Below the pieces are notes generated by a model. It was given only the letters and a program-made list of their open reading frames with translations, made no database searches and was not told the origin of the DNA. From Thermoplasmatota archaeon (GTDB lineage: Archaea > Thermoplasmatota > E2 > DHVEG-1 > B18-G2), in contig JAPDJO010000029.1 in assembly GCA_029259115.1 (NCBI GenBank), positions 1-64,000 on the forward strand: a DNA stretch of 64,000 nt, in the 5' to 3' direction. A program made the translations under genes and the position numbers. Shown in pieces: positions 10,808-58,832 of the stretch (position 1 is the first letter of the stretch; every line of letters starts with the position of its first letter).

Positions 10808-10837
10808 GGTAACAATTGTACAGAAAGATGTTTAAAA
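10808..10837 (+). promoter_or_regulatory. Conserved motif GGTAACAATTGTACA plus TATA box (site A)
   Basis: Motif 10808-10822; TTTAAAA at 10831; same architecture at 52196-52210 and 58818-58832. Confidence 0.7.
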
Positions 10838-10859
10838 GAACTAAACAAAAGGTAAACTG

Positions 10860-11006
10860 ATGAAAGTCATCGGTCTCATAACTAGTATGAAAGAAGCAAA
10901 AGAGCTTGAGTATATAGCAAAGGTTAGAATCGTAGTGAATAGAATCCATCTTCTTGCCATGATTGGAAAAGCAAGGAGCGAGAGGAGGAAAGGATTTAGT
11001 TTGTAG
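10860..11006 (+). CDS. Small protein (48 aa), paralogue of 52039..52143
   Basis: MKVIGLITSMKEAKELEYIAKVRIVVNRIHLLAMIGKARSERRKGFSL*; 13/34 ungapped identities to the paralogue; own promoter. Confidence 0.7.
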   Translation: MKVIGLITSMKEAKELEYIAKVRIVVNRIHLLAMIGKARSERRKGFSL

Positions 11007-11067
11007 TCTTTAAAATGTTCAATCATTTATCGAAGATTTAAAAATGCTTATTCCTTTAACCTCAACC

Positions 11068-11940
11068 ATGACTGTACTTATAGTATCTTCGACGGAAGAT
11101 CCAGCTAGTACAAACATCAAGAAGTTTCTCCTTGAGATTGGTGATTGGAACAAATTTGGTGAGATCTTCTCTCATCCGGTATATCTAGATGAAAACATAG
11201 ACTCTATAATTGTAACTATAGATGACCGTCACATAAGGCATGAAAACATCGATAAAGAAGTTATCGAGGAACTGAATATAAGCGTAGATCTGCTAATTGT
11301 TGTGTCCAGACATAGGAGTAAAACCGGAGAACCTACTCTAACAACTCATCCTCTTGGTAACTTCGGAGAGGCAAAATTTGGTGGAAGAGATAGAACTTTT
11401 GTTAAGTCATCTCCAAAGCTGATGACAGAACTGCTTAGATTATTGAAAAAACATGCGAGGTTAGATAATCTATATCATCAAGTAAGCTTTGAGGTTACAC
11501 ATCATGGTCCTTTTGTAGAGGTTCCTGCTCTCTTTGTAGAGGTTGGAAGTACAGAAGAGGAGTGGAGAAATGAAAAACCCGCAAGGAGCGTAGCCAAGGC
11601 AGTGTATGAACTTCTTTCCAATTATAGATCTGAAAGTGATCTTTCTGAGGAGATACCTGTGCTGATTGGAATAGGCGGCGGGCACTATGCTCCGAGATTT
11701 ACGGATCTAGCTTTTGAAAAGAAGGTGGCTTTTGGGCACATGATACCTAGTTATCAAATAGAGGCTGGATTGGTCGACGAAGAGATAATCAAAAAGTGTA
11801 TAGAGGCAACACCAGGATTCAGCGGAGTATATATACATAGAAAAGCTCTGAAAAAATCTGAGGTTAGAGAGTTTGAGAGGATGTTTGAAGATATGCAAAT
11901 AAGGGTTTTCAGATCTGCTGATCTATCTCCTTTATCTTAG
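11068..11940 (+). CDS. dtdA: D-aminoacyl-tRNA deacylase (archaeal DTD2)
   Basis: DPAS.NI, SRHRS, LTTH..GN, EVTHHGP, FVEVGS, GGGHYAP. Confidence 0.93.
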   Translation: MTVLIVSSTEDPASTNIKKFLLEIGDWNKFGEIFSHPVYLDENIDSIIVTIDDRHIRHENIDKEVIEELNISVDLLIVVSRHRSKTGEPTLTTHPLGNFGEAKFGGRDRTFVKSSPKLMTELLRLLKKHARLDNLYHQVSFEVTHHGPFVEVPALFVEVGSTEEEWRNEKPARSVAKAVYELLSNYRSESDLSEEIPVLIGIGGGHYAPRFTDLAFEKKVAFGHMIPSYQIEAGLVDEEIIKKCIEATPGFSGVYIHRKALKKSEVREFERMFEDMQIRVFRSADLSPLS

Positions 11941-12847
11941 ATTTTGCTAATATGTGAGCTTGTCTTAAAGGTTCAGGTATTCTGTATTTCAAAAATCTTT
12001 TGACTATATCTATCGATGTTTCCATAGAAACTCTGTGTCCTGGAGAGATGAATATCGGTCTTTTTGATGAGTATAAAACATACCCTATCTTATCTCCCTT
12101 ATCAAAGATGTATCTACCTTCAATTTCACCATGAAGCAGATTTTTTGCAACGCCAATCGTTGGGATATCTAGAACTATCCCTAGATGGGATGCTATCCCT
12201 ATCCTGTAAGGATGAAGTATTCCGTTACCATCTACTAGAAATATTGAAGGTCTTTCTTTCACCCGGTTTATGAGTTTCTCAAACAATGGCAACTCTCTAT
12301 ATGCTAAATACGTTGGAACATACGGAAATTTTATTTCATCTGTGATCCAAACTCTATCCATAACATTTCCTAGTCTATCCATAATCACACAAGCCGCACA
12401 TGCCAATCTTCTCTTCCTACTCGAGTAAGCGACATCCAATCCCCCTATCGTCTCTATATCATCAAAGTCATCTTCTATCCTGACTTTCTTACTCAACTCC
12501 AACTGTTCCTTCCTGAGTCTCTTTAAAGGATATTCGCTGACAAAATTATCAAAAAATACCTCATCAAAGTTGACTATCTTACCATCAATGACTTTTATTC
12601 CATCCTTTTCTAACCTTCTTATCTTTTCTTCAATTCCTAAACCAAATCCACCTAAAGTTCCATCTGAATTTACTACTTTATAGCATGGAGTGAAATCAGG
12701 ATTAGGGTTTTGATTCAAAGCAAAACCAACAGCTCTCGAAGCTCTTATGTCTCCAAGAGCTTTAGCTATAGCTCCATAAGTAGATACTTTACCCCTAGGT
12801 ATCTGTCTAGTTAATCTATAAACTTCTTCGAACAGATCTATCTCCAC
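11909..12847 (-). CDS. O6-alkylguanine-DNA alkyltransferase / endonuclease V fusion
   Basis: N-terminal IPRGKVSTYG..A...RAVG..L..NP...PCYKVV; C-terminal GLDVAY, PYVPTYLAYRE, VDGNG.LHP, GVAK, PEPLRQAH. Confidence 0.92.
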   Translation of the reverse strand: MEIDLFEEVYRLTRQIPRGKVSTYGAIAKALGDIRASRAVGFALNQNPNPDFTPCYKVVNSDGTLGGFGLGIEEKIRRLEKDGIKVIDGKIVNFDEVFFDNFVSEYPLKRLRKEQLELSKKVRIEDDFDDIETIGGLDVAYSSRKRRLACAACVIMDRLGNVMDRVWITDEIKFPYVPTYLAYRELPLFEKLINRVKERPSIFLVDGNGILHPYRIGIASHLGIVLDIPTIGVAKNLLHGEIEGRYIFDKGDKIGYVLYSSKRPIFISPGHRVSMETSIDIVKRFLKYRIPEPLRQAHILAKSKIKEIDQQI

Positions 12848-12981
12848 AGATATGGATATTTTCGTTCGTGTTTAAAATTGTTAACCTGCAAGCCCAAACT
12901 TTTATAAATCAAAATATTACTAAATTGACATTATTAAATTAAAATATCTTGTTTGAAAGAAAAGACAAGGGGTGAAAGCGA

Positions 12982-14136
12982 ATGAGGAAAATAAAAATCT
13001 ATGTGACTTTAGCTATCTTGTTTATGTTAGTCCTCATGCCAGTACCTTCAACAGCAGATGTAAATATAGAGGGACGATCCAAAAAAGCATATACCTGTGA
13101 TACCGTGGACGGGGATTATGAATATAAAATAGCAAAGATGACTATAAGTCCAGGTGATTTTCCTTGGTATAAGCCAAAGCTCTCCATTAAGTGGTATATT
13201 GAGTCTGGAGAAAGATTCGTTGCTCCCCATTCCCCAAAAAAGATCAAATTCATTGTAGAATGGAAAATAGCTAATGACGCTGCCCCATGGCCAGATGAAG
13301 TATGGAAATTTTCCTTTAAACTGGTTTGCAGAGATAAATCGATCTATCACCTTATCAATTATGTAATAGGAACTGATAAATATGAAAGACATGACAGAAT
13401 CGGAGTTGAGGACGGTGGAAGTGGCAAATTAGAAATAGCGTTTTGTCCAAGAGACAAGGTCCCCTGGATCTTTGATTATGGTAACCAAACTTCGGCTATG
13501 GTATATGCAGTTCTCTCTATGAAGTACGAGAGAGGAGGAAAGAAATGGACAAAAGATAGTGATGCTGTTGGTATGGAGATATATTTGGAGAATGCTCCTC
13601 CATCTAAACCTATACTCTCTGGACCACGCACATTAGAGCCAGATGAAGTTGGCGTATTCAAAGCTTACTCAACAGACCCAGAGGGAGACACCATCCAGTA
13701 TCAATTTAAGTTTGGTGATCATGTCACTAAATGGAGTGGACCACGAGCATCTGGAGAAGAAATTGTCATGACTTACTCTTGGGATTCATATTATAAGGGT
13801 AAAACTATTAGTGTGAAAGTTAGAGCGAGAGATACTTATACACCCTGTAAAGTAACGGAGTGGACCGAGATAAAGGTTAAAATTACGAAAAACAAGGATA
13901 TACAAGTGTCCCAAAGGACTTCACGAATGAGGCAAGCGAACAAACCTATCATTCCAATGAGATCGTTTCACCCTTCTGAAAATTTATTGATACATGCTAT
14001 ACTGAAACATTTCCATAGATCGATGATGACAAAAGATGTTATCATCTCACACCTTCCACCATTCACTGATTACAATCAGGAATCTTCAGGAGGTTATAAA
14101 AGGGCGAATTATCATGAAAAATCTTCGTTAGGTTGA
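12982..14136 (+). CDS. Secreted protein with PKD-like domain
   Basis: Signal peptide; N.PP.KP.L.GP...STDPEGD.I.Y.F.FGD...W. Confidence 0.8.
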   Translation: MRKIKIYVTLAILFMLVLMPVPSTADVNIEGRSKKAYTCDTVDGDYEYKIAKMTISPGDFPWYKPKLSIKWYIESGERFVAPHSPKKIKFIVEWKIANDAAPWPDEVWKFSFKLVCRDKSIYHLINYVIGTDKYERHDRIGVEDGGSGKLEIAFCPRDKVPWIFDYGNQTSAMVYAVLSMKYERGGKKWTKDSDAVGMEIYLENAPPSKPILSGPRTLEPDEVGVFKAYSTDPEGDTIQYQFKFGDHVTKWSGPRASGEEIVMTYSWDSYYKGKTISVKVRARDTYTPCKVTEWTEIKVKITKNKDIQVSQRTSRMRQANKPIIPMRSFHPSENLLIHAILKHFHRSMMTKDVIISHLPPFTDYNQESSGGYKRANYHEKSSLG

Positions 14137-14371
14137 GTTTTTCTGCTCCGAATATGCATGGACCAATTAACGGAATAGCATAAAATATCTATTAGATGGG
14201 GCTCTGCTATCAAATCATCTCCCTATATTTTAGGAAATCGCTGATAATACTTCAACAGAAGTGTTTCGCTGGTATCAATCATCAATAGTTTCTTGTAAAT
14301 ACAACATAAAAATATAAAAATGGAAAAATTTATAATAAACTACATCTTTTAGGAAAGAAAGGTGATACACA

Positions 14372-15457
14372 ATGAAAAAATTCCTGCCACTCTTCGTAAT
14401 CATAATCGCTGGTGCGGTCTTATTTTCTCCTGGGTTAGAAGCTTTCGGGAAACATAGCACTATTCAAAAGTGGAAAGAGATAAAACTTTCTGATGATCCA
14501 CTTGTTGGGGAGATGTGGTATGGTGGGCAGGGACAGGTCAAGATTACTCCATACTATGACATTATTGAGATACCTTTAATTAAGGGGCAGGAAGTAGAAA
14601 AAACTTTCAGCGTTTACTGTGATTTTGATGATCCTCCTTCAATCTATCCAGAGAGTTGCACTTTTAAGCTTATACACATAAACTCTCAGGGGGAGAAAAA
14701 AGAGGTGTCTAAATACTGCAAAGATCGATGGGGAAAAGATGATAACACCAAGTACGATGGATATCTGTATATAACGTGCAAGTTCAAGCTGACGGGACTC
14801 CAACCCCAAATCGAAACATTGCGATTAGAAGTTGTCGATCATGCTCCAGCTGTTGACGATGTGTATTATAGAGATATTGTTCTCAAGATCTATGAAGTAA
14901 AATTAAATCCAGACATAGAAATAGTGAAGCCAAAAAGAGGACACAAATATGTAAATGACAGGGATACAGGTCCCTCGCAAGATGGAAATACCTATGTCGT
15001 GGGCCCTTTGACTATCAAGGCAGAAGTACCGACATCCTGGGTCGCCCCAATAGAGAATGTCAACGGTGAAGTTTGGGTTGAATTCTTTGTCAATGGTAGG
15101 AGAATAGGCACAGACTACGATTATGTTCTCCAAGGCGATAAATGCCTATACAGTTATAGATGGTCTGGTCCGGACAAAATTACAGGATTCACATTAAAAG
15201 TTGTAGCGTACGATAGTTTCGGCAATGCAGCATCAGATAGTATATACGTATATGGTTCAAAGGGTAGGAATCTCATAAATAGCAATACCATGAGGACGTT
15301 TCACCCCCAGATTGTAAGAAATATGTTAAAGACTTTGCTCTTCCTAAAAGGTACTGATCACGATCTCCCAAAACTAACAAAAGATATGTTTCTAATCGGA
15401 TATGTGAACAGAGGAAATCCGTCAACGACTTTTTCTTCAGATATTCTCCTCCAGTGA
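14372..15457 (+). CDS. Secreted protein with Ig-like domain
   Basis: Signal peptide; VEFFVNG..IGTD...YSY.W...LKVVAYD..GN.ASD. Confidence 0.8.
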   Translation: MKKFLPLFVIIIAGAVLFSPGLEAFGKHSTIQKWKEIKLSDDPLVGEMWYGGQGQVKITPYYDIIEIPLIKGQEVEKTFSVYCDFDDPPSIYPESCTFKLIHINSQGEKKEVSKYCKDRWGKDDNTKYDGYLYITCKFKLTGLQPQIETLRLEVVDHAPAVDDVYYRDIVLKIYEVKLNPDIEIVKPKRGHKYVNDRDTGPSQDGNTYVVGPLTIKAEVPTSWVAPIENVNGEVWVEFFVNGRRIGTDYDYVLQGDKCLYSYRWSGPDKITGFTLKVVAYDSFGNAASDSIYVYGSKGRNLINSNTMRTFHPQIVRNMLKTLLFLKGTDHDLPKLTKDMFLIGYVNRGNPSTTFSSDILLQ

Positions 15458-15684
15458 TCTCCGCCTTTCCAAGAACTGCTTTATTGGGATCATAGAAACA
15501 TATCAAGGGTCTTTACTGTAATTAAATTTTCAAGTTATTGATCACACGATCATGGTCTAATAATATCTCTTGTAAGCAGGACTCAGATGTATTTCCCTAA
15601 TAAATATGACTGAGTTGATCGGTCTGGAAAAGTAAGTCGATACCAGCGGATAATTTAATAGCCTCTTTCTTATTCAAAAACTTG

Positions 15685-16458
15685 ATGGATTTCATCAAAT
15701 TTTTAGGTACTGCAGGTGCAAGATTCGTGATGATAAAGCAACTCAGATCATCTGGAGGTATTTGGGTATCTTTAGACGATACAAACATACTAATAGATCC
15801 CGGTCCAGGCTCTCTTATAAGGTGTTTGTCAAGTAAGCCAAGGTTAGATCCAAAAAATCTAGATGGTATAATCCTAACTCATAGACATATCGATCATTCG
15901 AATGATATAAATCTAATGATCGAAGCCATGACTAATGGTGGTTTCAAGAAGAAGGGAAAGGTTTTTGCTCCTAAAGATGCTCTCGAGGATGAACCTGTGA
16001 TATTTAGATATGCGAGGGAACAGGTTGAAGAGATAATAGAGCTGCACGAAGGTAAGGAGTATAGTATCAAAAACATAAGATTTGATACTCCTGTAAAACA
16101 TCTACATGGTGTGGAAACCTACGGGATAAACATATATGGTAAAGGTATCACGATCTCTCTCATATCTGATACAAAATATTTTGATGGATTGGAAAGTTTT
16201 TACAAGGGGGATATATTGATACTAAATGTAATCCGCCTGGAGCCAAGAGATGACATACTTCACCTCTCCCTGAAAGATGCTGAAAAGATCATTTCCAAGA
16301 ATAGACCTAAACTTTCTGTACTTACTCACTTTGGTATGACTATGCTCAAAGCAAAACCTTGGGAAGTAGCAGAGAGTCTATCTAAAAAACTGAATCTCAA
16401 AGTGGTAGCAGCCAATGATGGGATGGTGATTGATATTGAAAAGTATAGAAGCAAGTGA
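15685..16458 (+). CDS. Metallo-beta-lactamase fold hydrolase
   Basis: FLGT.G, IDPGPG, THRHIDHSND, SDT, LTHFG. Confidence 0.9.
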   Translation: MDFIKFLGTAGARFVMIKQLRSSGGIWVSLDDTNILIDPGPGSLIRCLSSKPRLDPKNLDGIILTHRHIDHSNDINLMIEAMTNGGFKKKGKVFAPKDALEDEPVIFRYAREQVEEIIELHEGKEYSIKNIRFDTPVKHLHGVETYGINIYGKGITISLISDTKYFDGLESFYKGDILILNVIRLEPRDDILHLSLKDAEKIISKNRPKLSVLTHFGMTMLKAKPWEVAESLSKKLNLKVVAANDGMVIDIEKYRSK

Positions 16459-18382
16459 GATAGAACTATTTCCTTACAAGCCGAGAAAATTTCAGAGAGA
16501 GATAGTTCTAGCTATAAGGGAGAGTTTAGAGAGTGGTACACCTCTCGTTTTAGAGTCTGGGACAGGATCTGGAAAAACAGTTTGTGCGGTATCCCAAGCT
16601 CTGAAGTTTTCTATTGAAAATGGAAAGAAGATAATCTATATAACTAGAACAAATGCTCAGCAAAGACAGGTTATAACCGAGGTAAGGAATATAAGAAAGA
16701 GGTTCCCGGAATTTAAAGAAGACATCTTTACTGTTGGTGTGCAGGGAAGGGCTCACACATGTTTACTAGCTAGGTCTGATCCAGAGTTAAGCAAAGGATC
16801 GGCGGAGGAGCTATCAAGGTTTTGTTCTGAGATGAAGAAGAGAAAACGAGGGGATGGTTGTCCTTATTTCGAGAATATGAATGATAAATTCGATGAAGTT
16901 GAAAAATTGGGAGAATGGATAAAAGATTATATTCCTACAACGGAAGAGATTATAGAGAGATGTAGAACCCTGGTAATGTGTCCATATGAATTGAACAAAA
17001 TCATGGTTGGGGATGCAAATCTAGTTGTGGCTCCCTACATCTATGTTTTTGATGATCGCCTCAGAAATCTGCTGTTAGATCTCATGGGCGTTAGCGAAGA
17101 GGATGCAGTCCTGATAATTGATGAAGCCCATAATCTACCAGAGTATCTCAGAGATTTGCTATCTTCATATCTCAGCGTTTATGCCGTGAATCAATGTATA
17201 ACTGAAAGTGAGAGATTTGGAGATCCATTTATTTTCAAAAGCATCAAGCTTTCGAATTTCTTGCTTGTAGTGAGAGATGCGATTGATCAAATAAGAAGTG
17301 ATTTCTTGAGAGAGAATGAAAATGATGCTCTTCTTAGCGAAGACACGTTTTTATCCATCATATCAGATTCTTTAGATATCACTAGAAAGGATATAAGATC
17401 GATAGCTGAACAATTGGTATTAATTGGAGAGGAGATAAAGGAGATAAAACAAAGGGAGAAGAAATTACCGAGATCTTATATCTATAGGCTAGGTGTTTTT
17501 CTCCTATCGTGGATAGATATGGACGATGAGAGATTTGTGAGATTAGTAGTTGATGAAACCGAAGGAAAAAATCCAAGGATAGAGATATACTGTCTAGATC
17601 CATCCTTGGGAGCAGAGCCTATCGAAAGGTTTCATACCTCTATCCACATGTCAGGAACCCTCTCGCCTCTGGAAGAGTATAAAGACTCTCTATCTCTCCC
17701 TGAAGACACTAGGCTTTTGTCTTTTCCCTCTCCCTTTCCCAAAGAGAACAGAAAAATCATTTACTCTCCAGCAGTATCAACGAAATACGAAGAGATAAAG
17801 TTCTCTGATGATATGGTGGATAAAATAAAGAGTATGATCGTGGAGATCTGCAATAACTTTAACAGAAATACAATAGTATTTTTCCCAAGCTTTGATTTGA
17901 TGAACGATTTCATAAACAGGGGATTAGTTAAAGAGATTAAAAGAACAATCTACCTAGAAAGAAGAGAGATGAGACAAGATGAACTCATGGATATCGTGCT
18001 TAAATTCAAAAAGGGTAGAGGAAAGGGAAATGTAATGCTATCTGTGGTTGGTGGGAGGATAAGTGAAGGAATGGATTTTCCAGCTGAGGAACTTGAGATA
18101 GCAATAATCGTAGGAATACCCTATCCCAGACCAACAGCTAGGCAGAAGGCTCTACAAAACTACTATGACAAGAAGTTTGGAAAGGGATGGGAATATGCAG
18201 TGAATGCGCCCACAGCCAGAAAATTACTCCAATCAATAGGCAGACTGATAAGAGATGAAAAGGATAGAGGTATAGCCGTGATTTTAGATAGGAGAGCATC
18301 TAGATTTAGAAAATATCTGGGTGATCTGAAGATATCTGGAGGGATAATCAAGGATATCAGAGATTTTTTGGAAGCAGGTTAG
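16430..18382 (+). CDS. xpd: XPD/Rad3/DinG family FeS helicase
   Basis: ESGTGSGKT, four FeS Cys, DEAHN, SGTL, EGMDF, QSIGRLIR. Confidence 0.92.
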   Translation: MILKSIEASEIELFPYKPRKFQREIVLAIRESLESGTPLVLESGTGSGKTVCAVSQALKFSIENGKKIIYITRTNAQQRQVITEVRNIRKRFPEFKEDIFTVGVQGRAHTCLLARSDPELSKGSAEELSRFCSEMKKRKRGDGCPYFENMNDKFDEVEKLGEWIKDYIPTTEEIIERCRTLVMCPYELNKIMVGDANLVVAPYIYVFDDRLRNLLLDLMGVSEEDAVLIIDEAHNLPEYLRDLLSSYLSVYAVNQCITESERFGDPFIFKSIKLSNFLLVVRDAIDQIRSDFLRENENDALLSEDTFLSIISDSLDITRKDIRSIAEQLVLIGEEIKEIKQREKKLPRSYIYRLGVFLLSWIDMDDERFVRLVVDETEGKNPRIEIYCLDPSLGAEPIERFHTSIHMSGTLSPLEEYKDSLSLPEDTRLLSFPSPFPKENRKIIYSPAVSTKYEEIKFSDDMVDKIKSMIVEICNNFNRNTIVFFPSFDLMNDFINRGLVKEIKRTIYLERREMRQDELMDIVLKFKKGRGKGNVMLSVVGGRISEGMDFPAEELEIAIIVGIPYPRPTARQKALQNYYDKKFGKGWEYAVNAPTARKLLQSIGRLIRDEKDRGIAVILDRRASRFRKYLGDLKISGGIIKDIRDFLEAG

Positions 18383-18533
18383 GAATACCATCCTTTATCT
18401 CATAACTAACGTTGCACTTTTTACATATCAGCTCTCCTTCGATTATCTCGTCATCTTCTTCTCTTTTCACCTTGAGTTCAAGATCTCCCTTACAGACAGG
18501 ACAACATATTATATCCATGAGATCCCTCTTCAT
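18357..18533 (-). CDS. Trm112-like methyltransferase activator (not in ORF track)
   Basis: MKRDLMDIICCPVCKGDL...EIIEGELICKKCNVSYEIKDGIPNLLPKNL*. Confidence 0.92.
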   Translation of the reverse strand: MKRDLMDIICCPVCKGDLELKVKREEDDEIIEGELICKKCNVSYEIKDGIPNLLPKNL

Positions 18534-18534
18534 A

Positions 18535-20960: not shown

Positions 20961-20961
20961 C

Positions 20962-21330: not shown

Positions 21331-21383
21331 GAGGATAGAAATCCTTTGCCAACATTTAAAAATTTCATCCCGATGTTTGAAAG

Positions 21384-22912: not shown

Positions 22913-22955
22913 GGAATAATTGTATAGTTATGATACTCAAAACAGTTTTGGAAGA

Positions 22956-23663: not shown

Positions 23664-23732
23664 AGAGTAAAATATATAAAATTTGGATATTTATAGTTTT
23701 TGAAAGAGGTTCTAATCTTTCTATAGGTAAAT

Positions 23733-46040: not shown

Positions 46041-46097
46041 TCAAGATGTAATAGATAAGAAAAACTTATGTATCTTTGCAAATTATTATTTTATAGT

Positions 46098-46182: not shown

Positions 46183-46185
46183 CTT

Positions 46186-46758: not shown

Positions 46759-46821
46759 GCAGAAGAGAATACTCACGGATAAGAAAACCCTTTTGTATCT
46801 ATTATCACATCATCTAAAATA

Positions 46822-48303: not shown

Positions 48304-48371
48304 CAGTTATTGAAATTGGATCATAACTGTTGGAATATAAGAGAAAAGATCAAAACTTGAGATATCTTGAA

Positions 48372-50259: not shown

Positions 50260-50322
50260 CCTACACCCCCAATTTAACACCGTTGTGTATAGAGTATTTT
50301 TATTAGTCTGGGTGGGAATTTA

Positions 50323-51195
50323 CTAATCTTTAACGTTTTCTATTAGACCTACCAGATCTTGGGTCGTTTTTGCTCCTGCCTTTAAGTAAAAGATTCTGCC
50401 ATATTTATCGAATATTACTATCGTAGGGATTGCATTTTCCAATAGATATTTTGATGCCTCGTAATATTTATCTATACCAAATATCCAGTTGTTTATGTAA
50501 CTTCCATAGGTGGATTCTATAGAACTCACGTCATCTCCAGCTACATCAAGAGAGATTATCACAACATCTGTATCATTATGGTAGTAGTCTCTGATCTCTG
50601 ATAGATAATTCATTTGTGCCCTGCAGGCAGGGCAATTAACGCTCATGAGATCAAGGATGACTACTTTCCCTCTGTAATCGCTTAGCCTCTTTTCTTCTCC
50701 AGATAAAGTGACGAATCTGAAATCCTCCCCCTTAATCTTTCCTTGCAAGGTTAGATTTAGAACCTCGATAAATCTCTTTATAGATTCTATTTTGTCTGAT
50801 GGATTGTATATGCTATAGGCTACAAGCTTGCTAAGTTCGTTTCCATTGCTATCTAAGAATATAACGAGAGGGAACGGATTATTCATAAATTTGTACTTTG
50901 AAAGTATCTCTCCTTGCGATGGATCGTTGACATCTATTTTTATGGCAACAAAATCTTTCATCATATTAATGATGGTCTCATTAGAAAACAGATTTTTTTC
51001 TAGGGTTTCACAAAAGTCGTAACCTGGAGAACAAAAGTATAGGATGGCAGGTTTTCCCGTATTCTCCATCTTTTGCATTCCCTCATTATAATCCAGCCAT
51101 TCTATGGATTTGTGTGTCTTATTAGAAGATTGTATACATCCTGCCATTAAGAATAATATAGAGAGTGTTATTGCAACATATCTCAATCTCATCAT
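50323..51195 (-). CDS. Lipoprotein with two thioredoxin-fold domains (TlpA-like C domain)
   Basis: AGC lipobox; degenerate YDFC domain; LSDYRGKVV.LD....CPAC...IPT. Confidence 0.85.
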   Translation of the reverse strand: MMRLRYVAITLSILFLMAGCIQSSNKTHKSIEWLDYNEGMQKMENTGKPAILYFCSPGYDFCETLEKNLFSNETIINMMKDFVAIKIDVNDPSQGEILSKYKFMNNPFPLVIFLDSNGNELSKLVAYSIYNPSDKIESIKRFIEVLNLTLQGKIKGEDFRFVTLSGEEKRLSDYRGKVVILDLMSVNCPACRAQMNYLSEIRDYYHNDTDVVIISLDVAGDDVSSIESTYGSYINNWIFGIDKYYEASKYLLENAIPTIVIFDKYGRIFYLKAGAKTTQDLVGLIENVKD

Positions 51196-51205
51196 CTACC
51201 ACATC

Positions 51206-51616
51206 TCAGATCAATCCTGCAGATCTCAACTTTTCAACAAGAAATTCCTTTGGCATAGCCCCTATAATCCTATCAACAAGCTCCCCATCTCTAAATAGGA
51301 GGATAGTAGGGATACTCATTATATTATATCTCATCGCTGTCTTGGGATTATTATCAACATTCAGTTTTCCAAATACAATTTTTCCTTTCAGTTCCCTAGC
51401 CAGCTCTTCGATTACTGGAGCAATCATAAGACATGGTCCGCACCAAGGCGCCCAGCAATCTATAGCTACGTTTTTGTATTTTTTAACCATCTCATCAAAA
51501 TTCACATCGCTAACCTCTATAGGTTTATCGGGCATACTTTCCAAGTTTTCACCTTCCATATACCTCTTTCTGAGTTCTTCAAGCTTCCTCCTTCTAAGCA
51601 TCTCCAGTTCGTCCAT
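51206..51616 (-). CDS. trxA: Thioredoxin
   Basis: WAPWCGPC, SIPT; start MDELE. Confidence 0.94.
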   Translation of the reverse strand: MDELEMLRRRKLEELRKRYMEGENLESMPDKPIEVSDVNFDEMVKKYKNVAIDCWAPWCGPCLMIAPVIEELARELKGKIVFGKLNVDNNPKTAMRYNIMSIPTILLFRDGELVDRIIGAMPKEFLVEKLRSAGLI

Positions 51617-51646
51617 GCAAGCCTGTAAACGATAAAGACATATATA

Positions 51647-51677
51647 AACGTTTGTGCAAATTTTATGCACAAACGTT
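51647..51677. promoter_or_regulatory. Perfect 12-bp inverted repeat between divergent TATA boxes (candidate operator)
   Basis: AACGTTTGTGCA-N7-TGCACAAACGTT flanked by TATA elements on both strands. Confidence 0.72.
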
Positions 51678-51705
51678 ATAAACCTTTAGATAATTCTCAG
51701 AATGA

Positions 51706-52047
51706 ATGGATGATAATCTCTGCAGAGACATCATGAAACGGATATTAGATTTGAGAGATACAGATATCGCTGTCTACAGGGAACTTCTGAAGATTAAAAA
51801 AGCTAGAGTGAAGGATATATCAAAGATTATTGGAAGAGATAGGACGACTATTCAGAGATCTCTGAATAGACTGGTAAACGCCGGCCTTTGCTGTAAAGAA
51901 AAGAAGATTATGAAAAATGGAGGGTATTTCTATGTCTATCACTTGAAAGAATCAGAAGAAATAAAATCTATTTTGGAAAGTTGTCTAGATAACTGGTATT
52001 ATAAAATCAAGGAGAGACTTAAATTGGAAAATGAGATGTTAGTTTAA
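51706..52047 (+). CDS. TrmB-like winged-helix transcription regulator with four Cys
   Basis: L...D..VY..L...V..I...DRTT.QRSL..L...GL...GGY.Y.Y. Confidence 0.85.
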   Translation: MDDNLCRDIMKRILDLRDTDIAVYRELLKIKKARVKDISKIIGRDRTTIQRSLNRLVNAGLCCKEKKIMKNGGYFYVYHLKESEEIKSILESCLDNWYYKIKERLKLENEMLV

Positions 52048-52143
52048 CAAACTCTTTATCCTTCTTTCGACAACGAAGCTCTTTGCTACCTCTTCTATCT
52101 CCTTTGCCTGTTCAGCGGTTGAAACCAAACCGACTATGAACAT
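52039..52143 (-). CDS. Small protein (34 aa), paralogue of 10860..11006
   Basis: MFIVGLVSTAEQAKEIEEVAKSFVVERRIKSLLN*; GGAGGTG RBS; TTTATAAA 52187-52180. Confidence 0.75.
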   Translation of the reverse strand: MFIVGLVSTAEQAKEIEEVAKSFVVERRIKSLLN

Positions 52144-52179
52144 TTCTTTACCACCTCCAAGTAAAATTTTGTCTGAGAG

Positions 52180-52210
52180 TTTATAAATGAATTTTTGTAC
52201 AAATGTTATC
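52180..52210 (-). promoter_or_regulatory. Conserved motif GATAACATTTGTACA plus TATA box (site B)
   Basis: Motif 52210-52196, 8 nt before TTTATAAA. Confidence 0.7.
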
Positions 52211-52808
52211 GATTGAGCTCATCCAATCTGTCAATCATTGATGTAACCAAATTTATCAACTTTTCGATACTTGTCTCATCTTCTAAAATTGTATTGACCT
52301 TTATTTCTATCTCACCATTATCAAGGGAGATGATAGGGTATAGATGTTCTGCATCGATTATCTTCTCTTGGATTCGATAATCCAGCAAATCGCGAATCAT
52401 ATCTTGATTATTTCCTTTGATTACAAATCTGCTATCAAAATAGTCAGATCCTATCTCCACCTCTTTTTCCACTCCCACTTTCTTCAAAATATCAAACATT
52501 TTCCCCTCCTTGAAAATATACATTTCAAGATCTTGAGAGAAAGTTGTAGTTGCTGACACTATGGTTTGTGAGGGAGAGTATTTGCTGCCTAAATAAAAAC
52601 GTAGGGAAACGATTCTGTTTTTGTAATTAAACTTCAAAGATGGGAGTCTAAAGGAGGGTTTTGATACCTTCCCTCCTCTTTTGATTGCTATTGATTCTAG
52701 GATTTCTATAAGTTTTCTCCTTTTTCGTGGAAAAGTAACGATGTATACAACAATACCCACTACTAAAATTACGATCCACAGCAATACTAGGATTTCTGTG
52801 TAGTCCAT
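52206..52808 (-). CDS. Hypothetical membrane-anchored protein
   Basis: N-terminal TM; G..FD.RFVI.G motif. Confidence 0.75.
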   Translation of the reverse strand: MDYTEILVLLWIVILVVGIVVYIVTFPRKRRKLIEILESIAIKRGGKVSKPSFRLPSLKFNYKNRIVSLRFYLGSKYSPSQTIVSATTTFSQDLEMYIFKEGKMFDILKKVGVEKEVEIGSDYFDSRFVIKGNNQDMIRDLLDYRIQEKIIDAEHLYPIISLDNGEIEIKVNTILEDETSIEKLINLVTSMIDRLDELNR

Positions 52809-52899
52809 ACCTCTAAATCGATTTTTTATTTGAAAAGTTTTGGAGTATGCAAAACCTTTTATTCTGAATCTCTATTCTGGGTTCGGGAGGTAGAGAGTT

Positions 52900-54342
52900 A
52901 TGACATCCATCCTTGATCTTGAGCCCAAAATAGTATGGAAGCATTTTGATGAGATCAGAAAAATACCCCGTTGCTCAAAACATGAAGAGAAAATTAGAGA
53001 ATACATCGTAAATTTTGCAAAACAGCACAACTTGGAATACCAGGTAGACAAAGCAGGGAATGTTGTTATAAGAAAGCCTGCTAGTCAAGGAATGGAAAAT
53101 AAGCCGATGGTTGTCCTCCAATCTCACATGGATATGGTTTGCGAGAAGAACAAAGATGTGGAGCATGATTTTTCCAAGGACCCAATAAAGGTCAAGATAG
53201 AAGGAGAGTGGGTAACAGCTGAAGGTACTACTCTGGGAGCTGATGATGGTATAGGCGTCGCAACGGCTTTAGCCATACTCGAAGATAAAAATCTAAAGCA
53301 CCCTCCGATAGAAGCATTGTTTACAGTAGATGAAGAAACTGGTCTAACAGGAGCGTTTGCTCTAGAAAAAGATTTTCTAAAGGGAAGGATAATGATAAAT
53401 CTGGATAGCGAAGATTTTGGTGTGATCTATGTTGGTTGTGCAGGAGGAGGAGATTCTACCCTAAAATTGTCTATAAAGAGGGAGAATATACCAACTGGTA
53501 TGAGAGTATTTGAAGTATCGGTAACTGGTCTCAGAGGAGGACATTCTGGCTGTGATATACACGAACAGAGGGGTAATGCTATAAAGATACTAGCCAGGAT
53601 TTTATGGAAAGTAAAAAAAGATATGGAGATCAGAATAATAGATATAACTGGTGGGGACAAACACAATGCCATTCCTAGAGAAGCAAAGGCTATTGTTGCT
53701 GTAAGTGATGAAGATAAATTCAGAGAGATTGTTGAGAGTGAAGCTAGAGATATACTAGAAGAGATCAAACCTGTAGATCCAGATATGAAAGTTGATATAA
53801 AGGGTTCTAAAGGAGAAAAAGCTCTCGACGTCGAATCTACAAACAAGGTTATAGATCTTCTATACGCCTTGCCTCACGGAGTACTTGCAATGAGTTATGA
53901 CATACCTGATCTAGTTGAAACCTCTACGAATCTAGCAAAGATAAGAGTGGAAGGAGATAAAGTAACGATAGTTATGAGTTCTAGGAGTTCAAGTAAAACA
54001 GAGTTGCAGGCTACCAGAGATAGAATAAGAGCAATAGCAACTTTGGCTGGAGCAGAAGTTGAGGAGGGATCAACATATCCAGGATGGAAACCAAATCTGC
54101 AATCAAAAATTCTTGCTATAGCAAAAGAGGTTTTCAAAGATCTATTTGGAAAGGATCCAGAGATAAAGGCAATACATGCAGGATTAGAGACAGGAGTCAT
54201 AGGTGAGAAATTCCCAGGAATGGACATGATATCGATAGGGCCTGATGTTAGAAATCCACACTCTCCAGACGAAAAGGTTCACATCGGCTCGGTAGAAAAA
54301 TTCTACAAGTATGTGACGAAAATACTGGAGAAAATAGAGTAA
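52900..54342 (+). CDS. pepD: Aminoacyl-histidine dipeptidase (M20C)
   Basis: QSHMDMV, TLGADDGIG, DEETG, GGHSG, IHAGLE, HSPDE. Confidence 0.94.
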   Translation: MTSILDLEPKIVWKHFDEIRKIPRCSKHEEKIREYIVNFAKQHNLEYQVDKAGNVVIRKPASQGMENKPMVVLQSHMDMVCEKNKDVEHDFSKDPIKVKIEGEWVTAEGTTLGADDGIGVATALAILEDKNLKHPPIEALFTVDEETGLTGAFALEKDFLKGRIMINLDSEDFGVIYVGCAGGGDSTLKLSIKRENIPTGMRVFEVSVTGLRGGHSGCDIHEQRGNAIKILARILWKVKKDMEIRIIDITGGDKHNAIPREAKAIVAVSDEDKFREIVESEARDILEEIKPVDPDMKVDIKGSKGEKALDVESTNKVIDLLYALPHGVLAMSYDIPDLVETSTNLAKIRVEGDKVTIVMSSRSSSKTELQATRDRIRAIATLAGAEVEEGSTYPGWKPNLQSKILAIAKEVFKDLFGKDPEIKAIHAGLETGVIGEKFPGMDMISIGPDVRNPHSPDEKVHIGSVEKFYKYVTKILEKIE

Positions 54343-54387
54343 TTTGACAAAACATTTATATACTAGCTCTTACCTATAGATGGGTGT

Positions 54388-54579
54388 ATGGTTGAAGATG
54401 TAACTGTTAAGACGGATAATTTGCAAAAGTTATTTCTAGATGAGGTCACAATAGAAAACGAAGAAGATGAACTAGCCTTTTTCATGAATAGATTCAATCT
54501 TAACATCGAGAACCTAGAAGCCATGCCTGCACTAAAAGAGCATATCGAACCCCTTCTATCCAGGACAGAGGAAGAATAA
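54388..54579 (+). CDS. Small acidic hypothetical protein
   Basis: 63 aa; TTTATATA upstream and GGGTG RBS-like sequence. Confidence 0.6.
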   Translation: MVEDVTVKTDNLQKLFLDEVTIENEEDELAFFMNRFNLNIENLEAMPALKEHIEPLLSRTEEE

Positions 54580-54636
54580 TCGAGAAATCCGAAAGCGATA
54601 TAAGCTATTGGCAGATACTTCTTACCAGGGGTGATC

Positions 54637-55848
54637 ATGAATCTAGAGAGGCTATTTTCAAAAAGAACAAGGACAATGAGACCGTCAGAGATTAGAGAAT
54701 TGCTCAAATTAACACAACAACCAGATATCATATCGTTTGCTGGAGGATTACCTAATCCTAACGCATTTCCTATAAACGAACTTCAGGATGTCGTTAAAAA
54801 AGTTTTAGATAAGGATGGTAAGCTTGCTTTACAGTATGGTCCAACTGAAGGTATCAGAGCTTTAAGGAATACCCTCGCAAACAGATGTGCAAAAGATGGT
54901 ATAGATGCAACATCTGACAATATCTTGATAACGACAGGTTCTCAGCAGGGACTGGATGTTCTGGGTAGAATATTTTTGGATCCCGGGGATACGATAATAG
55001 TTGAGTTACCAACCTATTTGGGAGCGATAAATGCTTTTAGAGCATATGAAATAAACTTTGAAGGTATACCTTTAGATAAGGATGGGATGCAGGTCGATCT
55101 CTTAGAAGAGAAAATAAAAGAGTTGCAGAAGAAGGGCATTGTTCCAAAATTCATCTACGTTGTCCCAACTTTCCAGAACCCTGCAGGCGTAGTTATGCCA
55201 GAGAGTAGAAGGAAAAAACTAGTGGATATAGCAAATGATTATGATTTGATTGTTATAGAGGATGATCCCTATGGAAAGCTGATTTACGAAGGAGAGGCTG
55301 TAAAACCCATAAAAAGTTTTGATGATGAGGGAAGGGTCATATATCTATCCACTTTCTCCAAGATCCTTGCTCCTGGCTTCAGACTGGCGTGGATTGTTGC
55401 ATCTCAAGAGCTCATTAGAAAGTTGTCTGTAGGTAAACAAGCTTTGGATCTTTGCACAAATACATTTGCACAATTTATAGCTAACGAATTTATAGAAAGC
55501 GGTTATTTGGATTTGCATATTATGAGAATAATAGAAATGTATAGACCCAAAAGGGATAAGATGATTGAAGCTATAAAGAAATACTTCCCACCAGACACGA
55601 TATGTCATAAACCCAGAGGAGGAATGTTTGCCTGGGCGACTATCCCTGGAAATATAGACACAGAAGAAATGTTCCTAGATGCCATAAAAGAGAAGGTTGC
55701 GTATATACATGGAAAAGCGTTCTATGTTAATGGTGGAGGAGCAAACTCCATGAGGCTCAACTTTTCCTATTCATCCGAGGAACTGATAGAAGAGGGTATA
55801 AGGAGATTAGGGAGAGTCATAGAAAGAAAGTTGAAAGAATCGAAATGA
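54637..55848 (+). CDS. PLP-dependent aminotransferase class I/II (LysN/aromatic type)
   Basis: SFAGGLP, LQYG, FQNP.G, EDDPY, TFSKILAPG.R. Confidence 0.93.
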   Translation: MNLERLFSKRTRTMRPSEIRELLKLTQQPDIISFAGGLPNPNAFPINELQDVVKKVLDKDGKLALQYGPTEGIRALRNTLANRCAKDGIDATSDNILITTGSQQGLDVLGRIFLDPGDTIIVELPTYLGAINAFRAYEINFEGIPLDKDGMQVDLLEEKIKELQKKGIVPKFIYVVPTFQNPAGVVMPESRRKKLVDIANDYDLIVIEDDPYGKLIYEGEAVKPIKSFDDEGRVIYLSTFSKILAPGFRLAWIVASQELIRKLSVGKQALDLCTNTFAQFIANEFIESGYLDLHIMRIIEMYRPKRDKMIEAIKKYFPPDTICHKPRGGMFAWATIPGNIDTEEMFLDAIKEKVAYIHGKAFYVNGGGANSMRLNFSYSSEELIEEGIRRLGRVIERKLKESK

Positions 55849-57395
55849 GATTATCATATTTCCTTCTGATGTTTATTTTGTTAATTCCGGCACTTTCAGG
55901 TTGTATAATAAATTTTAAGAAGGTTCACTGTGACATAATAAGCTATCATATAATAGACAATAACGGCAGACTAGGAGTGAAATTGTATTATAATTCTACA
56001 GACAACATTACATTCAAGTCCATGGATGCCTCTGGAAAAGAAATCGATAGACTATTTGTTACTCGAAGACTCGGTGAAGTTATCCTGAATCTGTCATCCT
56101 ATCACACAAATCCTCCCGATGGAATCTACAAAATACTGGCATATGATGTCTTTGGAAACAAAATAGAAGAATTTGGTATCAATATCGAAAGACCTTCTCT
56201 CAGCATTGAGAACGTAAATCTGACTTGGTGGAAGGAGGGAAAAGATTCTTACTCCATAGTTGAAATTAGAGTGTATGTAAAAAACAGCGGAGATATACCT
56301 ATATATATCGATAAGGTTTATGTCAAAATAGAAAATATCTCCCTAGACATAAAAACACTCGAAAATGTTGTACAACCTGGATATGGAAATGTGACTCTCT
56401 CTTTGTATGTTAATTCCCTGAAAGTAAAAGAATACAATCTCTCCCTAACCATGGTTGATCTGGATAACAACCCTCTAGCACAAGGAACTTTCTTAATTTC
56501 ACCAAATGTTGATCTGAAACAGGATCGCTTTTCTAAATCTTGGAGATTCGGAAAAAAGACATACTCCCTCACTGTACCTCTCCCTGAAGGACTTTACAAT
56601 TACTGCTCGTCATTTCCAAGACTGAATTTAGAGGACTACTCATTTTATGCCATAGATCCAAAAGTTCAAGGATTCGTAGACATGCTCGCAAGGAAACTGA
56701 AATCTATGTACAGAGGTAATGATATTATAGACTTTGTTGCATCGTTTGCTCAAAGTATAGAATATAGAAACGAAAGTGGAGAATACCCGAAATACCCTAT
56801 AGAACTGCTGCATGATAGATATGGGGATTGTGAAGATAAGGCAATACTAACCTCTTCTATTCTCTACAAGCTTGGTTACGATGTCTGCCTTATAAGGTTC
56901 GAAGATCATATGGCTGTCGGCGTATATCTGGGAGGTGATAGCTATCAAGGAAAAGTATATTACACCGATGACCAAGGAAAACAATACATCTATCTCGAGA
57001 CATCAAGTAAGGGCTGGAAGCTTGGGGAAGCTGATAAAGAGTATAGCCATGCAATGAATTATACGATTCATCATGTCACAGATAAGCCTATTCTTATACA
57101 GATGTGTAAACCTCCAGTTAGGCACCAGATAGGAAATAAAGACTATATAGATCTATCCTCCACAGTTATCAATATGGGAAATAAAGATGCCGATAATGTA
57201 AAGCTTAGAATCAAAGTAGAGGTATACGGCAGCGAGATAACTGTAGCTGAGAGTGATACGATTTATATAGGAGAAGGTAGAGGGGAAGATGTATACATAA
57301 AGTTTAACACTCCAAATCTCGAATTCTCCAAGATGTTTGTCGTTGTTATAAGCAATGGTAGAGAGGTTACAAGATCTTCTTTTGTGTTCCTATAG
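55845..57395 (+). CDS. Lipoprotein with transglutaminase-like domain
   Basis: LSGC lipobox; YP.E.L....GDCEDKAIL, HMAVGV, YLET. Confidence 0.85.
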   Translation: MRLSYFLLMFILLIPALSGCIINFKKVHCDIISYHIIDNNGRLGVKLYYNSTDNITFKSMDASGKEIDRLFVTRRLGEVILNLSSYHTNPPDGIYKILAYDVFGNKIEEFGINIERPSLSIENVNLTWWKEGKDSYSIVEIRVYVKNSGDIPIYIDKVYVKIENISLDIKTLENVVQPGYGNVTLSLYVNSLKVKEYNLSLTMVDLDNNPLAQGTFLISPNVDLKQDRFSKSWRFGKKTYSLTVPLPEGLYNYCSSFPRLNLEDYSFYAIDPKVQGFVDMLARKLKSMYRGNDIIDFVASFAQSIEYRNESGEYPKYPIELLHDRYGDCEDKAILTSSILYKLGYDVCLIRFEDHMAVGVYLGGDSYQGKVYYTDDQGKQYIYLETSSKGWKLGEADKEYSHAMNYTIHHVTDKPILIQMCKPPVRHQIGNKDYIDLSSTVINMGNKDADNVKLRIKVEVYGSEITVAESDTIYIGEGRGEDVYIKFNTPNLEFSKMFVVVISNGREVTRSSFVFL

Positions 57396-57432
57396 AAAGT
57401 TTTAAAGCCTCTATCTTATAGATATATTCTAC

Positions 57433-57746
57433 GGCGCCAGGAGTAGGTGGGCGGCTGACGGTGAAGGGGTATACCCTTCGCTGAGGAAAGTCCCCCCTCA
57501 CTCTGGGCCGGGGTGCCGCGCAAGCGGCAGGGACGAGAGTCCCTACAGGAGGAACAGAAACGACACAGCCAGCGGGAAAGGCGATGATGGATTTGATCCT
57601 GAGGTCCCCGCTGGATTTGGTGAAACGGCCCCTGTCCCCGGAGCAAGCCCAAGCAGCGGGATCGGCTGCCCAGACCGCCCGCGGGTAGGGCGCATAGTAG
57701 AATGCCGCCTAAAACAGAAGGGGGCTTACGGCCTACACCTGGCGCC
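57433..57746 (+). ncRNA. rnpB: RNase P RNA (archaeal type A)
   Basis: GC-rich island; GAGGAAAGTCC and AACAGAA...GGCTTA P4 halves; P1 GGCGCCAGG/CCTGGCGCC; GNRA-capped P8/P9. Confidence 0.96.
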
Positions 57747-57787
57747 AATCAAAACATTAAATATTTTCTACACCCTCCGCTCTTGCT

Positions 57788-58642
57788 GTGACACTAAGTA
57801 AAAAGGGAAAAGGAATTTCCTCGCTTATTACAGCATCCCTACTCTGGGGAACATCATTTCCAGCAATAAAGATAGCTGTATCAAATGTAAACGAGCTTAC
57901 TTACACTTGGACAAGAGCTGGATTTGCTCTTATTTTTCTTTTGCCATATGTTATTGCTAACAGGAAGAAGATAGACAAAAAAGTAATGAAAGGCGGCATA
58001 CTCGCTGGTTCTACATATGCTATCGGGATATGGCTGCAAGGTTGGGGAACAAGATTTACCACTGCTTCGAATTCCGCATTTATAACAGGCTTATACATGG
58101 TTTTTGTTCATGCATACATCGCTATATTGGTTAGAAGATACAGCAAAAAGCTTTCCCTGTCTCTGATTTTGGCTCTGACAGGATTATATCTATTAACCAG
58201 ACCTGACATGCATCTAAATGTCGGAGATTTTCTAGTTCTGCTAAGCGCTTTCCTCTGGGCTGCAAACATCCTGATAATAGATAGATATGCTGACAAAGAC
58301 CCTCTTTTGATAACATTCTTTGAGATGATACCTTCTGTTTTCTTCCTTATGCCAGATATAAGTCTAAATGGCTTCCCAACCTTGAATATCGATCAGTTTG
58401 CTGTGTTGATGTATCTTGGATTTGTATGTAGTGATGGAGCAACAGTATTTCAGGTTTATGGGCAAAGATTTATAGAGCCTGCTGCTGCTTCTGTGATATA
58501 TCTTATAGAGCCGGTATCTGCCTCTCTATTTTCTTTTGCTCTTCTAGGAGAGGTTATGAATCCTTACCAGCTGTCTGGTGCTACATTTATACTCTCAGCA
58601 ATGGCTATAGCATCAACTGAAAAGATTATAGTAAAGGGTTAG
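57788..58642 (+). CDS. EamA/DMT family transporter
   Basis: LWGTSF, TTASNSAFITG, EPV.A; about 10 TM. Confidence 0.92.
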   Translation: MTLSKKGKGISSLITASLLWGTSFPAIKIAVSNVNELTYTWTRAGFALIFLLPYVIANRKKIDKKVMKGGILAGSTYAIGIWLQGWGTRFTTASNSAFITGLYMVFVHAYIAILVRRYSKKLSLSLILALTGLYLLTRPDMHLNVGDFLVLLSAFLWAANILIIDRYADKDPLLITFFEMIPSVFFLMPDISLNGFPTLNIDQFAVLMYLGFVCSDGATVFQVYGQRFIEPAAASVIYLIEPVSASLFSFALLGEVMNPYQLSGATFILSAMAIASTEKIIVKG

Positions 58643-58646
58643 CATT

Positions 58647-58769
58647 TTAGTTATTTATCAATTTATATATTATCTGCTTTGCCTTCATTGGATTATAACC
58701 TTTATGGATCAGGTGAATATAGACAGCATCTAAGTAAAGGTCTCTCAGACATTTTTCTCGGTTGATCAT
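58647..58769 (-). CDS. Small protein (40 aa)
   Basis: MINREKCLRDLYLDAVYIHLIHKGYNPMKAKQIIYKLINN*; AGGTGGGG RBS; TATA and shared upstream motif. Confidence 0.68.
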   Translation of the reverse strand: MINREKCLRDLYLDAVYIHLIHKGYNPMKAKQIIYKLINN

Positions 58770-58804
58770 CTACCCCACCTAATTCAATTTCTGATTTTAC
58801 AGCC

Positions 58805-58832
58805 TATAAAGAGTTGTTGTACAAGTGTTATC
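58805..58832 (-). promoter_or_regulatory. Conserved motif GATAACACTTGTACA plus TATA box (site C)
   Basis: Motif 58832-58818, 7 nt before TTTATA. Confidence 0.7.

Follow-up and report, generated by a model that had tools for sequence, protein, structure and literature searches.

The box and its genes in the 64-kb window

The window analysed here is the first 64 kb of contig JAPDJO010000029.1 (C1 below), from a 1.40-Mb Thermoplasmatota genome with 39% G+C and an estimated completeness of 98.7%. A 15-bp box, GRTAACANTTGTACA, was present three times in this window, each time upstream of a TATA box and a small open reading frame (ORF). Comparison with the rest of the genome and with its relatives identified it as a conserved cis-element whose spacing to the TATA box is fixed, and not as a chance repeat. 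Judging from sequence arrangement and distribution, it is likely to be the site of a lineage-specific dimeric regulator, which would define a small regulon in an uncultured order of Thermoplasmatota. That this box circuit is real and undescribed is very likely.

A preliminary description of this DNA had reported three box copies lying 8, 8 and 7 nt before TATA boxes and followed by ORFs of 48, 34 and 40 aa, all of which were recovered at their coordinates. They are listed here together with a half-site discussed below (matrix scores were obtained with a matrix built from relatives only; HMM, hidden Markov model).

10808-10822, + strand: box copy 1, GGTAACAATTGTACA, matrix score 28.9
10831-10837, + strand: TATA box TTTAAAA of promoter 1, 8 nt (gaaagatg) beyond box copy 1
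10860-11006, + strand: 48-aa gene, divergent subfamily of microprotein family A (MKVIGLITS...RIH...), HMM score 71.3 bits
52210-52196, - strand: box copy 2, GATAACATTTGTACA, matrix score 31.0
52187-52181, - strand: TATA box TTTATAA of promoter 2, 8 nt (aaaattca) beyond box copy 2
52143-52039, - strand: 34-aa gene of family A (MFIVGLVSTAEQAKEIEEVAK...), HMM score 66.9 bits
58832-58818, - strand: box copy 3, GATAACACTTGTACA, matrix score 32.7
58810-58803, - strand: TATA box TTTATAGG of promoter 3, 7 nt (acaactc) beyond box copy 3
58769-58647, - strand: 40-aa gene of microprotein family B (core LYxDAxYxHLIxxGY), monocistronic
448-466, + strand: half-site TTGTACA (448-454) with TTTAAG 7 nt later, excluded from the regulon

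The ribosome binding sites previously proposed for two of the ORFs were both found: GGAGGTGG lies 7 nt before the ATG at 52143 (34-aa gene) and AGGTGGGG 3 nt before the ATG at 58769 (40-aa gene). The 48-aa ORF displays no clear Shine-Dalgarno sequence and starts at about the expected transcript start; this spacing indicates that the gene is probably leaderless. As had been claimed, no further copy of the box occurred in the window, even when up to two mismatches were tolerated. The half-site at 448 was also part of the preliminary description. Its sequence is indeed present, but it does not rise above chance as a regulon site, since it scored below 13 with a matrix of the right half plus the TATA box, against 15-17 in shuffled genomes. 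Neither Pfam nor NCBIfam provided a family for any of the three ORFs, and an Rfam search of the window retrieved only RNase P RNA and two tRNAs, with no RNA family at the three box loci.

The 48-aa gene is followed on the same strand by a D-aminoacyl-tRNA deacylase gene (11044-11940), and a box-bearing counterpart of its subfamily was encountered in another family of the order (L209). Within box copy 2, the TAA at 52208-52206 is the stop codon of an upstream 200-aa gene (52808-52206, weak DUF3137 match), so that the regulatory site overlaps a coding end. The 34-aa gene is convergent with a gene for an Lrs14/Sta1/TrmB-like winged-helix regulator (51706-52047, + strand), with a 3' overlap of 9 nt, and transcripts from promoter 2 would extend antisense into this regulator gene. 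Likewise, the 40-aa gene is convergent with an EamA transporter gene (57788-58642). Elsewhere in the window, the archaeal RNase P RNA is located at 57439-57740 (+ strand, 200.6 bits), and one of the Rfam tRNAs (1700-1821, + strand, 122 nt), which was absent from the ARAGORN output, probably contains an intron.

Genome-wide sites and conservation of the box

A scan of the genome and its relatives for the motif at fixed spacing to the TATA box, one of the checks named in the preliminary description, bore out the special status of these sites. A 34-column matrix was built from 29 relatives' promoters, this genome being left out. Applied to the 1.40-Mb genome, it retrieved seven sites with scores of 28.9-39.9, including the three in the window; the next sites scored 19.4 and 12.9, and the maximum in three shuffled genomes was 15.2. 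When the pattern itself was searched, five exact copies and three more with one mismatch were recorded genome-wide, against one match for the reversed-pattern control, and all good sites displayed the same organization, i.e. TGTACA, 7-8 nt and a TATA box. The seven sites precede four family A genes (those outside the window being located on C4 and C9), the 40-aa ORF at 58769 and, on C13 and C2 respectively, genes of 120 and 193 aa. At five of these seven promoters the ATG was found 41-47 nt from the start of TGTACA, a distance from which we infer that most mRNAs of the regulon would be leaderless.

Several additional sites were encountered. Two one-mismatch copies, at C2:34791 (inside the span of an archaellin match) and C20:9497, had no TATA box downstream and were excluded from the count. 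At C7:54689 (- strand), the right half of the box together with a TATA box reached 20.9 on the half matrix, against a maximum of 17.3 in shuffles. A convincing ORF was not found downstream of this site, which may drive a non-coding RNA or be inactive. Weaker box-like sites at C5:45577 (- strand, matrix score 19.4) and C4:64913 (- strand, detected only by the pattern TGTACA-N6-10-TTTAWA) are situated before membrane-anchored or secreted proteins, one of them with an immunoglobulin-like region. Together with the box promoters found before secreted proteins in relatives (see below), they suggest a cell-surface theme.

The conservation of the box among relatives was particularly clear upstream of family A. 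There, GGTAACAnTTGTACAACAAnnCnTTTAAAA was found at 29 of 29 relatives' loci, while the surrounding DNA was not conserved. In public named metagenome-assembled genomes (MAGs), the box preceded family A genes at 79 of 80 loci (matrix score above 14), and the sole miss, which scored 12.0, looks alike; the 29-locus and 80-locus sets overlap in genomes and their counts are thus not independent. The order-wide consensus reads GGTAMCAnYTGTACA, followed by AYAA, 4-5 nt and the TATA box, with a spacing between box and TATA box that is fixed in relatives. Conservation of the box extended across 22 genera, in which flanks and 5' leaders were not conserved. A second box was located exactly 22 bp upstream in 35 of the 79 promoters, as compared with none or one at each other offset from -32 to -9, and some boxes were perfect dyads of the form GGTAC-N5-GTACC (L027). 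Phasing by 22 bp, i.e. two helical turns, and dyad symmetry argue for a cooperative dimeric DNA-binding protein rather than a core-promoter element.

The strict pattern was also searched in five relatives, where it yielded 28 matches versus one for the reversed control. Fifteen of them precede family A or A-like genes, four precede short paralogues of the DUF6015 family (see below) and one a family B gene. Among the eight others, three lie before secreted proteins, one before a cysteine-rich 35-aa ORF and one before a hydrophobic 56-aa ORF; the remaining three comprise two chance-level sites (matrix scores 9.1 and 10.5) and a strong one (37.6) without a clear ORF. Since the box stands before non-homologous genes, it is extremely unlikely to be a mere by-product of gene duplication. 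In relative G012, two near-identical box-driven genes for secreted proteins were observed (L211 and L212, one copy with a masked stretch), the product of which reads as Hint/intein-type in its N-terminal part (C-F-P-A-G-T...) and carries repeated C-terminal modules.

Genes behind the box

The preliminary description had seen in these promoters a regulon of scattered microproteins. A shared box before scattered, mostly monocistronic genes was indeed observed, but its targets are not microproteins only and include a DUF6015 paralogue, in this genus an archaellin-like protein and in relatives secreted proteins. The three small genes of the window are conserved coding genes of two families: the 48-aa and 34-aa ORFs are paralogues belonging to family A and the 40-aa ORF represents family B. 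Both families are detailed hereafter.

Family A is composed of four paralogues of about 36 aa in this genome, with the general form MxIVGxVSxxxEAxEIExIAKxFxVGxRAR. A profile of these paralogues retrieved the family in all 41 genomes of the order sample (three families, 22 genera), at 2-7 copies per genome and without internal stops. In an even sample of 301 Thermoplasmatota genomes, it occurred in 40 (this one included), all from the order's families f1 and f2; it was found in no other family's genomes of that sample, nor in three sister-family genomes that are 82-94% complete. The ratio of nonsynonymous to synonymous substitution rates (dN/dS) had a median of 0.12 and was below 1 in all 139 usable pairs out of 406, the rest being saturated, and the synonymous sites were themselves saturated (median dS 1.6). 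Entropies at the three codon positions were 0.51/0.34/1.50, and the other two frames contained stops in 29 of 29 and 23 of 29 sequences. Family A genes are real protein-coding genes that are under purifying selection and specific to this order.

A HMMER search over 1.84 billion representative sequences gave 319 matches at E<=0.001, of which the best 150 were all 32-96 aa long, indicating a standalone protein. In public sets the family accounted for 1211 clusters; among the 120 matches listed, all names were 'hypothetical protein' or an uninformative tag, and none carried a Pfam family. The related records are titled Thermoplasmatales, Thermoplasmata or Thermoplasmatota MAGs (e.g. SM1-50, SG8-52-4) and presumably belong to MBG-D (Marine Benthic Group D), or Thermoprofundales. 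This group is widespread and globally abundant in sediments.

Family A proteins are predicted to be soluble and basic, with a median isoelectric point (pI) of 9.46, grand average of hydropathy (GRAVY) values from about -0.4 to 0.3 and charged residues throughout. Given these three properties, no transmembrane hydrophobic segment was recognized, and a hydrophobic membrane peptide or type I toxin was rejected as an identity for the family. A Pfam search of 34 members at E<=10 gave only seven weak matches, to Phage_antitermQ (best E 0.029), which were taken as noise. The genes are mostly monocistronic, located between unrelated genes and often convergent with the next one. The best-scoring gene occupies the same position across genera, between PurP (DUF1246/DUF1297) and a beta-CASP metallo-beta-lactamase RNase gene, at no fewer than nine loci (L025, L028, L031, L033-L036, L039 and L044). 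A radical SAM gene is also among the conserved neighbours in relatives, and a recurrent regulator was not found among the neighbour genes there. This maintenance of orthologous positions shows that family A consists of stable chromosomal genes and not of mobile elements. As to function, it is our guess that the microproteins are small, abundant proteins serving the transcription or cell-surface machinery as partners or modulators, because they occur in several copies per genome, are strongly conserved and share their control with TFE-like and surface or archaellin-like proteins.

Family B was more restricted, occurring in 19 of the 41 genomes of the order, and its codon-position entropies (1.12/0.87/1.62) are those of a coding sequence. 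The 193-aa gene on C2 belongs to the archaellin family, although marginally so (PF01917, 30.3 bits versus a cut-off of 29.5); its product has an N-terminal hydrophobic segment reading ...GSTGIASAILLIAILLMG, and the gene is situated at the edge of the archaellum locus. This locus is complete (C2:32774-47555; L177, L009) and comprises an EarA homologue, three tandem archaellins, ArlC, ArlD/E-like genes, two small archaellin-family genes, a KaiC-like ATPase, two T2SSE ATPases and a T2SSF membrane protein.

An orthologue of the 120-aa gene (C13:4546-4905) was present in each of the 41 genomes of the order, and the box was located directly upstream at all 30 loci considered, this genome's included (scores 14.1-44.7). 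It is the sole constant non-microprotein member of the regulon. Its homologues carry PF19479.6 (DUF6015) in precomputed annotation (120 of 120 among the matches listed), and we refer to it as the short DUF6015 paralogue. A longer paralogue on C9 is the genome's regular DUF6015 member and the sole one matched with PF19479.4; short and long forms match each other at E 3e-9. PF19479 was found in 298 of the 301 Thermoplasmatota genomes searched. The short form scored 159-190 bits within the order versus 79-119 in some sister families, and it was not found at E<=1e-15 in two others.

At the structural level, the short paralogue resembles a general initiation factor. Its six best profile matches in the PDB were all TFE or TFIIE-alpha (best E 0.011), and Foldseek placed TFIIE-alpha/Tfa1 on top (E 5e-4) with Pyrococcus furiosus TFE-alpha also among the closest, for a monomer model with a predicted local distance difference test (pLDDT) score of 83.8 and a predicted template modelling (pTM) score of 0.66. 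With VIA, Z values of 7.8 (TFIIE-alpha) and 7.3 (P. furiosus TFE-alpha) were obtained, versus about 5.5 for generic winged-helix regulators; the model thus displays the extended winged-helix fold of TFE-alpha, with the caution that Z values below 8 may mean merely a common fold. PF02002 reached 17.5 bits on the protein, below its cut-off of 22.9, and the C-terminal zinc ribbon is absent from these proteins of 115-121 aa, this genome's copy having no cysteine at all. The DUF6015 family is apparently derived from the TFE/TFIIE-alpha fold.

The association between this paralogue and a box may reach beyond the order. In one genome of the closest sister family, f50, a variant box (TGTGCAACAA-N4-TTTAAA) was found twice, with no control matches: once ahead of the short DUF6015 paralogue and once ahead of a secreted lipoprotein-like gene. 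Family A was not found in this genome, which is 82% complete. The link between paralogue and box may for this reason be older than the microproteins.

Proposed mechanism and rival explanations

In the mechanism that we propose, a factor would sit directly against the B recognition element (BRE) and TATA box, with one dimer per box and two where the -22 box exists. By analogy with EarA and TFB-RF1 it is probably an activator that helps to recruit TFB/TBP, because the box ends where the BRE begins, which is the position of these archaeal activators. The preliminary description had likewise called sites directly upstream of BRE/TATA typical of activators, in agreement with PMC5512572. Such binding is reported in that paper and in PMC10665913, both of which also contain the proposal that EarA activates by helping TFB recruitment; the upstream elements at the TFB-RF1/pf1089 promoter and in the Sulfolobus ara-box are said to compensate a weak BRE (PMC5512572).

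Some observations weigh against this reading. In the window taken alone, 0.74 matches were expected when up to two mismatches were tolerated, and three were reached in 6 of 100 shuffles, which makes this a weak test. The position of the BRE coincides with the motif's 3' part, AYAA plus 4-5 nt, and part of the conservation may reflect core-promoter strength. Membership is patchy outside family A and the DUF6015 paralogue, since the box was upstream of only 9 of 31 family B members and at 10 of 30 loci of archaellin-like homologues (5 of 5 in this genus). Metatranscriptome contigs (four runs of one sample from one study), considered within 50500-59500, were of low depth, and transcript start, strand and level are not readable from them. 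They covered 58351-59027 at a depth of 2-4 only, one of them spanning promoter 3 into the upstream thermosome gene, and 52005-52305 in a single run. The microprotein regions had depths of 0-4, as compared with 50-68 for RNase P RNA, 0-5 for most neighbours and up to about 17 for the thermosome gene.

Among the rival explanations, the least credible is that the shared sequence arose as a by-product of gene duplication, promoter and gene being copied together, or by chance. Four of the seven sites do precede paralogues and the window-only shuffle test is weak, but the box also stands before unrelated genes and has been kept across 22 genera in which flanks and leaders were not, and in spite of saturated synonymous sites; we regard this explanation as extremely unlikely. 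The motif might instead be a strong or specialized core promoter (an extended BRE/TATA) of highly expressed genes, read by TFB/TBP or a second TFB and requiring no dedicated regulator. This would agree with a 3' half abutting the TATA box at the BRE position, with targets that include small, probably abundant proteins and surface proteins, and with the presence in the genome of a single complete TFB gene along with another TFIIB-repeat match that is partial. However, the GGTAMC half and the second box lie 25-50 bp from the TATA box, out of reach of the BRE, some sites are dyad-symmetric, the box occurs at only seven promoters of the genome, and the arlB1, earA and arlCDE promoters have none. 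A core promoter of this kind therefore appears quite improbable.

An equally poor prospect, in our estimation, is a repressor operator, possibly for the family A microprotein acting as a minimal ribbon-helix-helix (RHH)-like autoregulator of its own multi-copy genes. No gene behind the box is more constant or more numerous than family A, its proteins are basic, an N-terminal strand-like segment precedes a helix, and phased tandem boxes are typical of small dimeric repressors. Yet none of 34 family A members matched any RHH family of Pfam, even at E<=10, and a sequence search of the PDB gave nothing at E<=1. The AlphaFold monomer (pLDDT 86.7, pTM 0.44, too little for a fold assignment) consists of coil at residues 1-9 and one long helix at 10-33, not a helix-turn-helix. 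Moreover, a site upstream of BRE/TATA is less usual for archaeal repressors, according to PMC5512572.

If the box is bound by a dedicated dimeric factor, two candidates can be named. The lead named one is the short DUF6015 paralogue, as an autoregulated regulator or a promoter-selective initiation factor; this is possible, though on balance doubtful. Its candidacy comes from its being the sole non-microprotein gene always found with the box, and from a link that seems to reach a sister lineage in which family A was not found. Against it stand the Z values below 8 of a monomer model, the failure of this genome's copy to match PF19479 (hmmscan at E<=0.01 and a genome search with the family) and the absence of the box at 15 of 16 sister-family loci of the short paralogue. 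In addition, TFE-type winged helices are known as RNA-polymerase-bound factors and not as sequence-specific DNA binders. The fuller scenario, in which the paralogue would read or be recruited to the 15-bp box and so switch on its own gene together with a multi-copy set of 36-aa partners or effectors, is rather unlikely. Were it true, it would represent a sigma-factor-like promoter choice built on the fold of a general initiation factor and confined to one order of sediment archaea.

The second candidate is an EarA-family protein, the box then being a lineage variant of the EarA site. The EarA homologue (C2:32774-33110) scored 89.1 bits with PF07381 against a cut-off of 22 and adjoins the archaellin genes, the family was present in 39 of the 41 genomes (1-5 copies), and one target, at the edge of the archaellum locus, is archaellin-like. 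EarA motifs are given as TACATA and A(C/G)(C/G)TACA(T/C), occurring as side-by-side repeats shortly upstream of the BRE, according to PMC10665913; our box has the same position and shares the GTACA core alone with these motifs. On the other hand, this homologue is the sole one in the genome, and the first archaellin promoter (arlB1) that it adjoins displays ATGCATA-type repeats just before an A-rich BRE and no box. The best box score at arlB1 was -7.3, and best scores at the arlB1, earA, arlCDE and second archaellin promoters ranged from -4 to -15, as compared with 0.8 for the 99.9th percentile of the background. Besides, EarA was not found in two f3 genomes, both only about 60% complete, that hold family A and the DUF6015 paralogue. 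An EarA-family regulator is rather improbable, and a factor other than these two candidates is the most likely single option.

The preliminary description had not recognized this system among those described. In agreement with this, nothing in print was found at the level of titles and abstracts. The motif TGTACA was not found in the titles and abstracts of the papers listed on archaea, TATA boxes and small proteins, the papers found on Thermoprofundales/MBG-D and related sediment archaea are, by title and abstract, devoted to genomics or ecology, and no paper was found mentioning DUF6015 by name, nor was a promoter role reported for it.

Almost nothing is known, to our knowledge, of how uncultured archaea control transcription, and regulons of archaeal activators have been defined in very few cases anywhere. 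The present analysis provides a sharply defined cis-element with a complete and small target list, and two uncharacterized families of microproteins that show strong conservation, occur in multiple copies and are confined to one order. It also offers a first functional handle on the DUF6015 family, which is present in almost all Thermoplasmatota genomes searched. The target set is unusual in associating multi-copy microproteins with a paralogue of an initiation-factor fold. Box, candidate regulators and microproteins are short in every case; synthesis and in vitro testing are possible without culturing the organism.

Among known systems, the closest resemblance is to the EarA boxes in the euryarchaeal archaellum promoters of Methanococcus maripaludis and P. 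furiosus, which likewise have a TACA core, are sometimes repeated and lie directly upstream of BRE/TATA; an EarA homologue and an archaellin-like target are moreover present in this genome. The differences are that the first archaellin promoter is devoid of the box, that microproteins and a TFE-like protein, encoded at scattered positions in the genome, make up most of the targets, and that the box forms a unit of 15 bp, the second copy being phased at 22 bp. The regulon described here is of the same kind as the EarA upstream-site regulon but is not a member of the EarA system, because the defining target of the latter, the first archaellin promoter, lacks the box. TFB-RF1 (pf1089) and the Sulfolobus ara-box also involve an element directly upstream of BRE/TATA, but sequence, lineage and target set differ from those of the present box. 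Finally, TFE-alpha/TFIIE-alpha have the same fold as the 120-aa member and are its best sequence-profile matches. This member is distinguished from them, and from the regular DUF6015 proteins, as a short paralogue (116-120 aa) without zinc ribbon that stands behind a dedicated conserved box.

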